From a virus (taxonomy: Duplodnaviria; Caudoviricetes), in IMG/VR virus record IMGVR_UViG_3300026026_000024, positions 1-48,267 of that record: 48,267 nt of DNA; one strand, written 5' to 3'. Both the position numbers and the translations under genes were made by a program. Below the pieces are notes generated by a model, which was not told the origin of the DNA, ran no database searches, and saw nothing but the letters and a program-made list of their open reading frames with translations. Below are positions 13,006 through 22,934 of this stretch, one piece after another; the first letter of the stretch is position 1, and each line of letters begins with the position of its first letter.

Positions 13006-14124
13006 TTAAATCATTTCTATTTGGGAGGGGGTTAATGCCTTAAATTCAATAACCCACACGAAAGGATTCTTTTCCCATGAGCTTGGACCGTTGATGTTTT
13101 CCCAAAGGCTTCTATATGATACAATAGGAGATTCATCGTAGGTCGCTTTTTCCCCATAAATTTTATATCCCTTATTAACCATAAAGCCATTTTTCCATTC
13201 TTTAAACTCAATCCCCTCACTTATAGCATCCTGCTCGGTTATATCCTGCAACCGTTCAACCCTTACATTGGTTACTTCAAGAAATATGCGGGCGGCTTCA
13301 CGGGGCATATGGATTGAGGGTTTCCATTTTTCGTTTGTTGGTGTTAAGTCTTGTTCGGAAGTTGCTTTATATTCATAAGGAAACCCTATTGGAAAATTAT
13401 GCCTTTTGGGATGCCATGTTTCCCTTACCCATATTTTCATTCTGGTATACCAAAGCAAACTCTGCTTATAGCGGATTGTGACATTCCCAATATCCTTGCA
13501 ATATGCCTTTGTGAAGCCAATCCCTTTCCTACTACCCAACGAATATGTTCCCGTTCTTTGTCCGTCAATTTGCTCATTGGATGTTTTTCTCCTTCCATTC
13601 CGTGACCATGCAGTTTCCTGTCCTGCCAATTGTCTATTTGTGTTCCCCATTTCAGGTTCTCTGGTTTTGAATTTTGGGGATTTCCGTCCAAATGCCTGAC
13701 TTGCATTCTCATATTCTCCGGCATCCCATGAAACGCCATACAAATTAATCTGTGCGTGTTCTGAGTTACTTTCTTGCTCTGATGACATAAGGTTACAGAT
13801 GAATATCCCTTTTTTGTTATGTGTGGTATTAATGGATACCAATCCACGTACTCCTTTCTCCCAAAGCCTTTGTACTTCGTTCTTGAGTAAATCTGGCCAT
13901 CGCTGCCAGCCCGATAGTCGTCGTTCGGCGATATTGGTATCTGTTTCAAAATCAATTTTTCCATAATTTATTTCATTTATGGATGTAAAGATAACAAAAC
14001 ATCCGTCTTTACGTAAGTGAATATAAATATTTTTATCAACAAATTTTACAATTCTCCTTGTCTGGCTTTTCCTTCCTTCAAGTATGGCTTGCACCATTGG
14101 TGTTGAAAATAAGATTGGTTTCAT
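13006..14124 (-). CDS. ASCH/PUA-like phage protein with a ~180-aa insert overprinted by an HNH gene
   Basis: N-terminal PILFSTPMVQAILEGRKSQTRR; C-terminal WVRETW, WKPSIHMPREAARIFLEVTNVRVERLQDI, NPFVWVIEF. Confidence 0.8.
   Translation of the reverse strand: MKPILFSTPMVQAILEGRKSQTRRIVKFVDKNIYIHLRKDGCFVIFTSINEINYGKIDFETDTNIAERRLSGWQRWPDLLKNEVQRLWEKGVRGLVSINTTHNKKGIFICNLMSSEQESNSEHAQINLYGVSWDAGEYENASQAFGRKSPKFKTREPEMGNTNRQLAGQETAWSRNGRRKTSNEQIDGQRTGTYSLGSRKGIGFTKAYCKDIGNVTIRYKQSLLWYTRMKIWVRETWHPKRHNFPIGFPYEYKATSEQDLTPTNEKWKPSIHMPREAARIFLEVTNVRVERLQDITEQDAISEGIEFKEWKNGFMVNKGYKIYGEKATYDESPIVSYRSLWENINGPSSWEKNPFVWVIEFKALTPSQIEMI
13437..13964 (-). CDS. NUMOD4-HNH homing endonuclease nested in the +1 frame
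   Basis: YRAGSDGQIYS, HRLICMAFHG, VRHLDGNPQNSKPENLKWGT, GEKHPMSKLT, C-terminal HTH. Confidence 0.85.
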   Translation of the reverse strand: MEKLILKQIPISPNDDYRAGSDGQIYSRTKYKGFGRKEYVDWYPLIPHITKKGYSSVTLCHQSKKVTQNTHRLICMAFHGMPENMRMQVRHLDGNPQNSKPENLKWGTQIDNWQDRKLHGHGMEGEKHPMSKLTDKEREHIRWVVGKGLASQRHIARILGMSQSAISRVCFGIPE

Positions 14125-18927: not shown

Positions 18928-19075
18928 GCCGGTCACCAATAAAAAAACCAGGGCTGTCAGTACACCGCAAAGTGTTACCCTGGTATTTTACCGATGAACC
19001 GGCGTATTTTAAAGATGAAGAAAAATCGTTCATTGTTTGCGGTGTTAAATCTGACATACAATACTACGAAATATT
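18928..19075 (-). ncRNA. Putative C4/CI-like antisense leader RNA with alternative pairings
   Basis: Long hairpin 18928-19003 whose loop (UUUGCGGUGUACUGACA) is complementary to upstream UGUCAG and ACACCGCAAA (19036-19056). Confidence 0.55.
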
Positions 19076-19203
19076 TTAATCCGTTATACACTTAACCGTC
19101 AAAATCTTCAATAAAGTTATCAACCACTGTTAACAACTTGTACGTTATCCGCACTGGTAACGGGGTTGGTGTTTTTGGTGTTCGTCCGTTTATTTTTCTT
19201 CTT

Positions 19204-20112
19204 TTATAAATTGCTTTCATCTTCGTATTTTTGAATGCTTTTGAATATTTCATACACTAATTGGACAACCACGCTATTGCCATACGCTTTTACGCTTTCG
19301 TTTCTCCATTTAGGAAAGGTAATTCCGTCCAGTCTACCGGAAAGCTCATCATTTCGGCTACAAAGCGGGGATTGAGTTGGAAATTCTGACCAACTTCTCT
19401 TTGGATATGTTCGTGAAGATTTACTCCCCTGGAGTATTGCTGTCTGGTTTGAAACACCTCTGAATCCTGTTTGAAACCGCTGCGATAATCCCTTGCTGCT
19501 GGTGTCGGTAGTAGTGATAAATTCATTAAGTCGTTTATCCTGTATCTTTTGTGATTTGTGTTTGTCATCTCGTATTCCATTGCAGCATGAAAAGCCCTCG
19601 GAGTGTGCAACAAACCAAATCCTATCCCTTCTGTGGGGAGCGTTGACGGAGCAAGCTGGAAGTAAAAACGGTAACACTTCGTAGCCTTCAGTTTCCAAAT
19701 CAGCCTGCACTTGGTCGAATACCAATCCCCCGTTCCAATTAGTAAGGCCGCGAACGTTTTCGAGAAGGCACCAATCCGGGCGAACCTGTCTAATGAGTTC
19801 AACTGTTTGAGGCCAGAGGTAACGGTTATCGTCCGTTCCTTTTCTTTTTCCTGCTGCTGAGAATGGTTGGCACAGCTACGGGAACCCGCCCACAACGATA
19901 GTTGCTCTGGACGGGTTCCATTTTCCTGAATTAATGATTGTTTCACGAGTTAATGTTTTTATGTTGTCATGTATTGGTATACCTGGAAAATGATATGCTA
20001 TAACCCGTTGGCAAAATTTGTCTATTTCACAAAATTGAACTGTTTCCCAACCGATCCATCTACCAGCCAAACTAAATCCACCAATTCCAGAGAATAAATC
20101 AATGATTTGCAC
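19204..20112 (-). pseudogene. C5 cytosine DNA methyltransferase, alpha frame, with in-frame TAG-CTG between catalytic Pro and Cys
   Basis: DLFSGIGG, CEID, GGFP*LCQPFS, LLENVRG, PHRRDRIW, AYGNSVV all in one frame. Confidence 0.85.
19290..19946 (-). CDS. Alternative-frame C5-MTase beta polypeptide (M.EcoHK31I-beta-like, motif IX)
   Basis: 218 open codons within the MTase gene; LLPTPAARDYR, QLNPRFVAEMMSFPVDWT. Confidence 0.7.
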   Translation of the reverse strand: MKQSLIQENGTRPEQLSLWAGSRSCANHSQQQEKEKERTITVTSGLKQLNSLDRFARIGAFSKTFAALLIGTGDWYSTKCRLIWKLKATKCYRFYFQLAPSTLPTEGIGFGLLHTPRAFHAAMEYEMTNTNHKRYRINDLMNLSLLPTPAARDYRSGFKQDSEVFQTRQQYSRGVNLHEHIQREVGQNFQLNPRFVAEMMSFPVDWTELPFLNGETKA

Positions 20113-20527
20113 GTTTCCTCCCCCTTGTAAACTGATTATTATGTGGTGAATATTTCCGGGTATGCTCTGCCTTAGGTAAACATTCTAAGTTGTCAATCCA
20201 ATTATGTGATCGAATTTCGTCTATGTGGTGAATATCCCAATTATCAGGTATTTTTCCTTTTTCCTTTTCCCAAACATAGCGGTGCATTAACCCACGATTA
20301 CCCTTCGTTAAACTATAATATCCAGTATCACGAAGCGTAAACTTTTTCCCGTCATATTCCTGATATGGTCTGAAATTGGGTCCACGAAGTTCTAGCCCAC
20401 GTTTTTTGAATGCTTTAAAAACACATTGCCTTGTAACTCCTAATTCTTTCGCTACCTGTTCAAGCGAAAGTCCATAAAGATAGAGTTTGTAAGCATTATC
20501 GTAAACAGGATTTCTTTTTTGTCCCAT
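20099..20527 (-). CDS. HTH-HNH homing endonuclease with its own promoter
   Basis: HRYVWEKEKG...IHHIDEIRSHNWIDNLECL; TATATTTG at 20532-20539 upstream of MGQKRN. Confidence 0.82.
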   Translation of the reverse strand: MGQKRNPVYDNAYKLYLYGLSLEQVAKELGVTRQCVFKAFKKRGLELRGPNFRPYQEYDGKKFTLRDTGYYSLTKGNRGLMHRYVWEKEKGKIPDNWDIHHIDEIRSHNWIDNLECLPKAEHTRKYSPHNNQFTRGRKRANH

Positions 20528-20566
20528 GATGCAAATATATAAAATATTGTTGACATTTGCAAACTT

Positions 20567-20596
20567 TATTCCGCTAAAAAGCGATCCGTGATTCAT
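20567..20596 (-). pseudogene. Orphaned original MTase N-terminus (motif I)
   Basis: MNHGSLFSGI, then the sequence switches to the HNH promoter region. Confidence 0.7.
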
Positions 20597-20793
20597 TGTT
20601 TAACTCTTGATTCATTCTTCACCGCGTCGGCAATTTCACGGTACATTGCATCGGGATTTCCGAACATAAATTCATTAATTGCCTCGTTAATCTCTTCATA
20701 AAGTTTTTCATAAAATTCCTGATCAGTCGTTTCTGACGTTATCAATCCCATAGCGACAACGGCCTGGTAGTTGCGGTTAATTAGTGTGTTCAT
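20593..20793 (-). CDS. MazG-like nucleotide pyrophosphohydrolase (short or truncated)
   Basis: KLYEEINE...EIAD. Confidence 0.5.
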   Translation of the reverse strand: MNTLINRNYQAVVAMGLITSETTDQEFYEKLYEEINEAINEFMFGNPDAMYREIADAVKNESRVKQ

Positions 20794-20796
20794 TGG

Positions 20797-21423
20797 TTAA
20801 AATAATGTTAGTTGTTTTTTATACAAATTAAATCTGTTAACTCCAGCATCAAAGTATTCACGGTCGATTTCACAAATGTCCAAATCAAACCCTTCCATGT
20901 CACAGGCAATGGCAGATGACATAGATCCACCGTGAGTGTCTAAAATACGCTGGCCTGGTTTGGCGTAGTTTTGAAGTAGATTATGGTATAATGATATTGG
21001 CTTTTGTGTTGGATGAATTGTACTTTCCTTTGATCTCCTTTTATCTGCATGGTTAAACCCATAACTTTCTATTTTAATCGCCCTACTCGTTTGATTAAAA
21101 CTCGTCCATGCCAACTCAAAATCACTAAACGAGTTAATTGGATTTCCCTTGTACCATGAAATCCAACACCTATTAACTGGAAGACAATCTGTAAAATAAT
21201 TACCACCCCATATTATTTGATTCTTACTTACTCTAATCAGTTCCGTAAAATATTTGAGATCAGGTTTATGATTCTCATAAACCTGATCTCCTGTACCATA
21301 ACGGAAATTGAAATGCTGTCCGCCACCATACGGAGGATCAACAATAGCCAAATCGTAAAAATTATCAGGCTTAGACTTCATAAACTCCATGCAGTCGATG
21401 TGATGAAAATTGATATTGCTCAT
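20797..21423 (-). CDS. N6-adenine/N4-cytosine DNA methyltransferase (beta class)
   Basis: IVDPPY, HPTQKP, ILDTHGGSMS, CEID. Confidence 0.9.
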   Translation of the reverse strand: MSNINFHHIDCMEFMKSKPDNFYDLAIVDPPYGGGQHFNFRYGTGDQVYENHKPDLKYFTELIRVSKNQIIWGGNYFTDCLPVNRCWISWYKGNPINSFSDFELAWTSFNQTSRAIKIESYGFNHADKRRSKESTIHPTQKPISLYHNLLQNYAKPGQRILDTHGGSMSSAIACDMEGFDLDICEIDREYFDAGVNRFNLYKKQLTLF

Positions 21424-21439
21424 TGAAATTGAAATAAAA

Positions 21440-21631
21440 TTAACATTCAACAATTTCTTTAATCCGGCTGTAATTTATATTCTGTCCGGCGGGATCGCCT
21501 TCGTTGGCTACGAAAGTGATGTATTCCTCTGTGTAGTCAACGATTTTACCGGCTTGCCTTGCTTCATATCCTTTGGTTGTGTAAACCAGGATAATGATTT
21601 TGTTCAGGTGAGATATGGCACGTTGTTTCAT
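21440..21631 (-). CDS. Hypothetical protein
   Basis: 63-aa ORF in operon. Confidence 0.5.
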   Translation of the reverse strand: MKQRAISHLNKIIILVYTTKGYEARQAGKIVDYTEEYITFVANEGDPAGQNINYSRIKEIVEC

Positions 21632-22490: not shown

Positions 22491-22934
22491 TTAATTCATC
22501 GGCTGCGATACCGAAGTAATAGTATTAACTGGTTTATTTCTATATTTATGTCCGTGATGTATTTCATTGTGATGCAATGAGCAAAGCCATCTTATTTCCA
22601 ATGGTTTATTGTAATCGTCATGATGACCTTGTGTTTTTTCATTTCCACATATTTCACAAGGCTGTGGTATAATCTCATGATTCCTAATAGCATTTTTCAT
22701 GATTAAATGCGCCTTGTATTTAATTGGATTGTTTGCCCTGTATTGTTGTGAATATGCAGTTAAATCTTCCCTATGTTTTATCCTACTACGTTTTCTAATT
22801 TCGTTGTAAGCTATTGGATGTTCAGTGGTCCATTTTTTGTTTTTTTCGCTAATCTTTTCTTTGTTTTTGATATAAAAATCGTGGCTTTTGATTTTATGAT
22901 AAGCCTTTCTTTTTTCTTTATCCTTGTAAGGCAT
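22491..22934 (-). CDS. HNH-like zinc-finger protein with basic N-terminus
   Basis: CEICG...GHHDDYNKPLEIRWLCSLHH. Confidence 0.7.
   Translation of the reverse strand: MPYKDKEKRKAYHKIKSHDFYIKNKEKISEKNKKWTTEHPIAYNEIRKRSRIKHREDLTAYSQQYRANNPIKYKAHLIMKNAIRNHEIIPQPCEICGNEKTQGHHDDYNKPLEIRWLCSLHHNEIHHGHKYRNKPVNTITSVSQPMN

Follow-up and report, generated by a model that had tools for sequence, protein, structure and literature searches.

Stop-first inserts at the catalytic Pro-Cys of phage C5 methyltransferases: probable ribosomal hopping over the end of a likely homing cassette

To our knowledge, very few cases of natural translational bypassing are known. The best comparison for the locus described here is gene 60 of phage T4, a topoisomerase gene interrupted by a 50-nt gap with an A-site stem-loop and a mini Shine-Dalgarno sequence. 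Its insert blocks nicking by the homing nuclease MobA and outlives the nuclease (bioRxiv 2022.08.31.505936), and its 5′ stem-loop has been modeled as a zipping motor (PMC5009743; bioRxiv 2024.12.09.627546). In synthetic E. coli constructs, a stop flanked by matched codons is hopped, so that nine nucleotides yield one amino acid (work of Weiss et al., 1987, described in PMC5009743); the available part of that 2016 review knows of no natural case of in-frame stop hopping. In the Streptomyces phage Hau3 terminase gene, a conserved phage gene, short inserts of 7-10 nt with a proposed 5′ stem-loop are bypassed, and bypass was shown by mass spectrometry in E. coli with the UUA codon replaced by a stop (PMC10732093). 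The ShiLan domain is a hidden HNH homing element inside actinophage methylase genes, without splicing (PMC11855218).

The inserts that we describe in C5 methylase genes would work like gene 60/MobA, but are not that element. Both systems have a non-coding insert at an invariant catalytic-site codon, a stop right after the take-off codon, one tRNA to read the take-off and landing codons, and a 5′ stem-loop. In both, a linked homing nuclease is often lost while the insert persists, one site has been invaded repeatedly, and nuclease types are exchangeable. The methylase gap is 6 nt long (rarely 7 or 9) and mostly in frame, compared to 50 nt in gene 60, with no room for the A-site stem-loop or the gap Shine-Dalgarno sequence. 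Take-off is from Pro rather than Gly/Asp, and the methylase landing codon tolerates wobble at positions 1-2. The 5′ stem-loop is conserved and covarying in the methylase inserts, whereas the available gene 60 literature reports it as not conserved between clades of gene 60 relatives. The host gene is a C5 methylase, not a topoisomerase, and the likeness to MobA drawn here is one of features. The E. coli stop-hops, in the account available, were constructs, whereas the methylase inserts are natural, widespread and accompanied by a stimulator. Hau3 differs in that a hungry UUA codon is the natural trigger, the inserts break the frame and occur in 3/100 genes, and no nuclease link is reported in the available text (PMC10732093). 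The ShiLan insertion is stop-free and read through, and 'bypass' is unmentioned in the available text (PMC11855218).

The window, which is the whole stretch of DNA analyzed, is a 48,267-nt IMG/VR virus record (IMGVR_UViG_3300026026_000024; Duplodnaviria; Caudoviricetes) with direct terminal repeats and terminase, portal, tape-measure and DnaB genes. CGCG is depleted in it (observed/expected 0.25), as is CTAG (0.46). Positions 19890-19864 on the minus strand read GGC GGG TTC CCG TAG CTG TGC CAA CCA. A profile search identified the frame as a C5 methyltransferase (PF00145, E 5e-41). Its alignment to M.HhaI reads 'gfp--cq', a 2-residue insert between the catalytic P and C, and P directly precedes C in all 120 intact homologues listed. 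This confirms the central observation of a preliminary description of this DNA, a Pro-Cys split by TAG-CTG. That description also called the 6-nt insert exact. The length is right, but at the DNA level the placement can shift one base either way because GT is repeated. The parts of the gene are as follows.

19204..19872, minus strand: methyltransferase C-half with Cys, ENV, RxR and motif X, the resident gene part (frame, profile, motif counts)
19290..19946, minus strand: nested +1 frame, probable second subunit with a motif-IX-like stretch, kept open by the 6-nt insert (phrog_1008)
19870..19872, minus strand: catalytic Cys codon TGC, the putative resume codon (sequence, M.HhaI alignment)
19873..19878, minus strand: 6-nt insert, stop TAG (19878-19876) and candidate landing codon CTG (19875-19873) (sequence, M.HhaI alignment, stop first in 218/218 related inserts)
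19879..19881, minus strand: CCG for the catalytic Pro of motif IV, the proposed take-off codon (covaries at its third base with the landing codon)
19879..20112, minus strand: methyltransferase N-half, 78 codons from motifs I-III to GGFP, apparently cassette-borne (frame, profile, mosaic pairs, selection)

Motif I, Pro-Cys, ENV, RxR and motif X are all present in the sequence of the gene, with Pro-Cys contiguous only if a hop occurs. The statement that every other motif from I to X is in frame needs one correction: a stretch that we take to be motif-IX-like, LNPRFVAEMMSFP, sits in the +1 frame, not the main one. This nested frame (19946-19290, 218 aa) matches the DNA methyltransferase family phrog_1008 and is open across the insert, so the report of a preserved overlapping frame stands. 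The arrangement presumably resembles the two-frame C5 methyltransferases of the M.EcoHK31I type. The +1 frame is open for at least 150 codons in 109/115 insert genes compared to 73/76 intact genes; it is a family-wide background and does not explain the insert.

No intact second methyltransferase copy was found in the window genome, and an Rfam search of 19000-21000 gave no match. The insert is only 6 nt long, and neither the RNA structure nor the splicing domain of a self-splicing intron or intein is present. Recoding of TAG in the window phage was considered as an explanation and discarded, because the corresponding stop in relatives can be TAA or TGA. TAG, the stop at the proposed hop, ends none of the 30 ORFs listed in the window.

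The insert does not result from an assembly slip, because another IMG/VR record, L001, matches the window at 100% identity across 5537 nt and a Logan contig with a depth of 15.7 spans the site without a gap, although the run behind that contig may be the window's source. The one independent run (X2) gave a 210-nt contig with one difference that ends at 19893, short of the insert. No RNA run appeared among those listed for this sequence. Nor is the insert a matter of chance, because the same kind of insert occupies the same site in 218/218 methyltransferase hits from relatives. The possibility that it is unique to this contig or an assembly error is refuted by these observations.

As the preliminary description had proposed, relatives were searched for stops or 6-nt inserts between GGFP and C, and such inserts were found. 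A search with the window protein returned 10 loci, of which five carry a stop plus one codon at Pro-Cys, namely L001, which is the window phage again, plus four further loci; the stops are TAG, TGA or TAA. Three scans then left the six inserted bases unconstrained. In viral sequences, GGFP-N6-CQP gave 82 loci, 80 of them methyltransferases (stop first in 80/80), and GGFP-N6-CQD gave 36 loci, 31 of them methyltransferases by profile (31/31). The metagenome scan gave 118 loci of about 230, including 107 methyltransferases (107/107). Combined, a stop (TAA, TAG or TGA) opens the insert in 218/218 methyltransferase hits, a count from which 2, 5 and 11 non-methyltransferase hits had been removed per scan, one of them (L283) a stop-first insert under the profile cut-off. 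The collections overlap; together with the loci of the protein search and a genome scan they hold 171 unique contexts, and at <85% flank identity there are 104 clusters. The intact pattern occurs in about 6300 stretches of the same viral collection, so roughly 1% of family genes carry the insert. The genome scan, of GTDB, had 23 hits, of which 12 are methyltransferases, including one in the isolate Muriventricola aceti H5_61 (L273), whose take-off codon, stop and landing codon are CCT TGA CCC. GC content of the loci ranges from 33% to 69%.

Inserts of other lengths are rare. L476, a single contig, has a frame-breaking 7-nt insert. Five inserts are 9 nt long, with a Gly codon in the gap of L455 and two stops in a row in L466, L489, L490 and L491. 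All of these, from scans that demanded a stop-like first codon, have the stop first and a Pro-like codon last, with both halves open and the hairpin present. A search for other insert lengths between TGGFP and TGC CAA CC gave 44 loci, in which the methyltransferase hits had 6 nt only, and none of four hits to inserts in GGSP/GGWP-type motif IV was a methyltransferase. No cultured phage with the cassette was identified in the GenBank phage set, in which Paenibacillus phage matches span the C-half only.

The codons of the insert follow strict rules. Over the 104 diverse contexts, the stop is TGA in 44, TAA in 43 and TAG in 17. Position 1 of the second codon is C in 84, T in 18 and A in 2; position 2 is C in 64 and T in 40, never A or G. 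Among the 218 hits, position 2 is always C or T and 211 have pyrimidines at both positions, while position 3 takes all four bases. One GCG landing codon occurs in the genome scan. The Pro anticodon pairs with C or, by wobble, with U, and CUG in the window is therefore a typical landing codon. Third bases are identical between take-off and landing codon in 55/104 contexts, compared to 30.3 after shuffling (0/10000), a kind of test that is inflated by relatedness here and below. The second codon of the insert would always be readable by tRNA-Pro, and the codon pattern fits a tRNA hop. A transition bias could feed the C/T pattern, but not the covariation or the contrast with position 3. As in gene 60-type bypassing, a stop directly follows the take-off codon (218/218), and a codon that would pair with the retained peptidyl-tRNA lies directly before the resume codon.

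A stem-loop is predicted upstream of the insert.

19881..19919, minus strand: predicted 5′ stem-loop with a 12-bp basal stem, its 3′ arm ending on the first base of the take-off codon (z -2.8; insert-specific and covarying in relatives)

In the window, 19919-19908 pairs with 19892-19881. In 96/123 relatives, the last base of the stem is the first of the take-off codon. Insert alleles (140) have a median MFE of -27.6, compared to -10.4 for the 116 intact alleles, and z is below -2 against synonymous recoding in 101/140 insert alleles compared to 0/116 intact alleles; in 39/140 insert alleles the hairpin is weak or absent. When all pairs of columns were compared in an unfitted alignment, covariation was strongest at -29/+2 (A-U 44, U-A 34, G-C 32); intact genes showed no comparable pair. 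In an alignment of 30 sequences, hand-picked from 88 diverse ones partly for alignability, 89.7% of cells pair, with many G-U pairs, and there are 23 double changes compared to 7.2 after shuffling. When the register was fixed on invariant bases, a good partner arm was found in 39/84 insert and 4/84 intact sequences, and two variable stem positions were Watson-Crick in 38/39 and 32/39. Compensatory changes of this kind are those of a conserved mRNA stimulator. Loop lengths differ, which indicates that the hairpin geometry was rebuilt several times. The peptides upstream of the insert vary widely between insert types.

A mini-hairpin between the third bases of the first Gly codon and the Pro codon was also considered and rejected (85/171 paired, 82.1 after shuffling). 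When the genome was tiled with 72-nt windows, only 2/804 reached -25 kcal/mol, one of which may be a perfect 16-bp hairpin with a 3-nt loop at 21256-21290 on the minus strand (z -6.85). The ORF that contains it (20797-21453) encodes an adenine methyltransferase; the hairpin follows the DPPY codons by about 30 nt, and no stop or gap was seen there.

Upstream of the methyltransferase frame are a nuclease gene and what may be the left edge of a cassette.

20099..20527, minus strand: gene of a 142-aa HTH-HNH endonuclease with its ATG at 20527; overlaps the start of the methyltransferase (profile search, relatives)
20532..20563, minus strand: promoter-like site TTTG-N20-TANNTTTG, the only one on the window's minus strand (sequence)
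20567..20596, minus strand: second motif I, MNHGSLFSGI, a remnant from the start of the invaded gene; left cassette edge near 20567 (homology to L002 starts at 20567)

The promoter-like site matches what we take to be the Bacteroidota promoter consensus, and TANNTTTG lies ahead of the nuclease ATG in 25/28 free-standing relatives scored. A left edge similar to that of the window is seen between L209 and L040. Using five seed profiles (one, H13437, matched nothing and was dropped), we found an HNH gene ≤1 kb upstream in 74/126 insert contexts and 0/74 intact contexts with enough flank, the intact controls not being host-matched. In 52/126 insert loci no nuclease is nearby. Two nuclease types occur, with one HTH module common to both (26/26). 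The nuclease is either free-standing at the gene start, as in the window, or fused in frame before motif IV. In the fused form (L008, L021, L044, L273, L294, L302, L309 and L476), the HTH-HNH with its own Met lies between motifs III and IV, and the stop at Pro-Cys terminates the nuclease frame.

The window genome has at least five HNH-like ORFs. One, with HNH_3 and HTH (13437-13964), is nested out of frame in a longer ORF (13006-14124, minus strand), the hidden-HNH layout of ShiLan. Another, an endonuclease at 22491-22934 on the minus strand (phrog_2340), has an HNH core of the type that is fused into the methylase N-half elsewhere.

The distribution and boundaries of the inserts point to a homing cassette. 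On a tree of 379 C-halves there are 63 changes between insert and intact states compared to a shuffled mean of 117; the insert is therefore clustered, yet far from a single clade. In a tree-aware test with 9 independent pairs, the median p was 0.008 for the hairpin and 0.03 for HNH (range 0.008-0.5). These pairs support the link between insert and hairpin, and more weakly that between insert and HNH. Intact L115 and insert-bearing L384 are 98.9% identical upstream and 97.7% identical from motif IV on, with a swapped, longer block between. L118/L057 and L209/L040 also share flanks, with the right edge at motif IV. Judged from these mosaic pairs, intact methylase genes lose their 5′ part to the cassette, and motif IV is where the exchanged block ends. 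A nuclease gene tied to the variant allele, a patchy distribution on the host-gene tree and conversion tracts with sharp edges (all three pairs) are features of homing cassettes. L118 and L057 contain a tandem-repeat-like region about 800-1470 nt upstream of motif IV, with an 18-nt period and many offset BLAST hits.

We consider it probable, from these comparisons, that the insert closes a mobile homing cassette on its right-hand side and is skipped by a ribosomal hop. The cassette would consist, in order, of the promoter-like site, the HTH-HNH gene, the methylase N-half, the hairpin, and the stop with its landing codon. The nuclease would cut intact alleles at or near the conserved Pro-Cys DNA, its candidate target, and repair would copy the cassette in; the insert and the recoded flank would render the carrier immune to its own nuclease. 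During translation, a ribosome with peptidyl-tRNA-Pro on CCG would stall at the stop. Release after Pro is presumably slow; a literature search for slow termination after Pro gave no bacterial source. The upper hairpin would form outside the exit channel, and the stem would zip down to the take-off codon, draw the mRNA back by about 6 nt and prevent re-pairing. The tRNA would then re-pair on CUG by G-U wobble and decoding would restart at TGC, restoring Pro-Cys. Most ribosomes would probably terminate. We infer that intact alleles are cut and insert alleles immune, that ribosomes pause at Pro-stop and are moved forward by the hairpin, and that a joined protein is made; each of these steps has an analogy in the T4 gene 60 literature. 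In an E. coli cell-free 70S system, a 12-bp upstream hairpin promoted +1 slippage at a stop only without RF2, according to the available text (PMC6321510). The efficiency of the hop may therefore be very low.

The CCG-UAG-CUG hop suggested earlier is strongly supported by the comparison: the stop comes first, the landing codon is Pro-like, the two codons covary, a stem-loop is present, and 7-nt and double-stop variants exist. The alternative offered beside it, a scar that destroys the HNH target, is probably the reason for the insert, but it combines with a hop rather than competing with it. The suggested throttle on a toxic methylase is possible but unsupported; about 99% of family genes in the same collection are intact.

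The main alternative is a selfish knockout, in which the methylase is killed and the cassette spreads by homing alone, with no full-length enzyme. Neither the nuclease link nor the mosaic boundaries require a translation event, and phage methylases are often dispensable. Selection on the gene halves bears on this directly. The N-half is the more informative of the two, since it is always transferred together with the stop and would serve no evident purpose by itself. Its dN/dS outside the hairpin is 0.42 (45 disjoint pairs) compared to 0.31 in intact genes (33 pairs), an excess that a knockout would predict. However, it is 0.39 (12 pairs) where the nuclease is gone, so that purifying selection persists without it. 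The C-half value is 0.36 compared to 0.31 in intact genes (disjoint pairs), although its differences may predate the insertion and have accrued while in intact alleles. ENV is kept in 123/129 and RxR in 128/129 insert genes, and the frame downstream of the stop is not decaying, whereas decay was named in the preliminary description as counting against its reading. The free-standing nuclease has a dN/dS of 0.34 (8 pairs). By these measures both halves are under purifying selection, and the N-half is constrained but slightly relaxed compared to intact genes. Nor would a dead gene have any use for a constrained landing codon or for a covarying hairpin that contains G-U pairs. We regard a knockout as unlikely, and the comparative evidence, with purifying selection on both halves, counts as refuting the simple inactivation considered earlier.

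The six bases could instead be lost before translation, by DNA slippage at short repeats (phase variation) or by realignment of RNA polymerase by the nascent hairpin. CCGT..CTGT is nearly a repeat, with a period of 6 nt, and a hairpin in the nascent RNA can make the polymerase slip. However, the repeat is often imperfect and its changes obey G-U wobble, not identity. The constraint is that of being a stop in the methylase frame, and no deletion variant appeared in the contigs examined, though contigs drop rare variants. This explanation is very improbable.

Readthrough would place an amino acid at the stop and yield P-X-L-C, in an enzyme that tolerates two extra residues. An insert of 6 nt leaves the frame unchanged, and in 84/104 contexts the stop is followed by C, which makes it leaky. 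Against this, a sense codon occupies the stop position in 0/218 inserts, and the 12 genome-scan methyltransferases all have a stop there and none TGG, which the pattern allowed. All three stops are used, and P adjoins C in every homologue listed. Readthrough cannot serve the double-stop and 7-nt variants, since L476 read in frame ends 16 residues past the stop, and it leaves the covariation of take-off and landing codons unexplained. We give it very little weight. A split enzyme, whose N-half terminates and whose C-half arises as a chain of its own when translation re-initiates at the catalytic loop, is the least credible: MobA and MobE insertions do split other enzymes into two working chains (bioRxiv 2022.08.31.505936), and 18/104 contexts have CTG as landing codon, which could serve as a rare start, but ATG, GTG or TTG occurs at the landing, Cys or next codon in 0/104, and the next listed start in the window is 49 codons past Cys, after ENV.

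A likely origin of the arrangement can be read from the relatives in which the nuclease is joined in frame to the methylase, between motifs III and IV: there, the Pro-Cys stop doubles as the stop codon of the nuclease. A simple possible origin is that the Pro-Cys codons were duplicated in tandem and TGY then changed to TGA.

On balance, we favor the view that these inserts represent the first natural in-frame stop-hop, and probably one of the most widespread programmed bypasses. A search for a published description of a stop insert at Pro-Cys found none, by title or opening of the abstract, in the open literature covered. A minimal portable signal, composed of a hairpin, a stop and a wobble-matched landing codon, would let a homing nuclease break its own target in a catalytic dipeptide without splicing. 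It appears with several hairpin geometries and two nuclease types, and would work in hosts of several bacterial groups. In the fused forms, termination versus hopping would set the ratio of nuclease to methylase. The more than 100 distinct natural variants with covarying signals are a resource for bypass, and with them a 50-nt cassette is enough for a direct test of whether pairing of the mRNA behind the ribosome drives it forward. Because gene callers truncate at the stop, an estimated 1% of the methylase family would be filed as broken. The inserts would offer homing nucleases a splicing-free route into catalytic motifs, and other in-frame stops taken for pseudogenes or readthrough may be hops.
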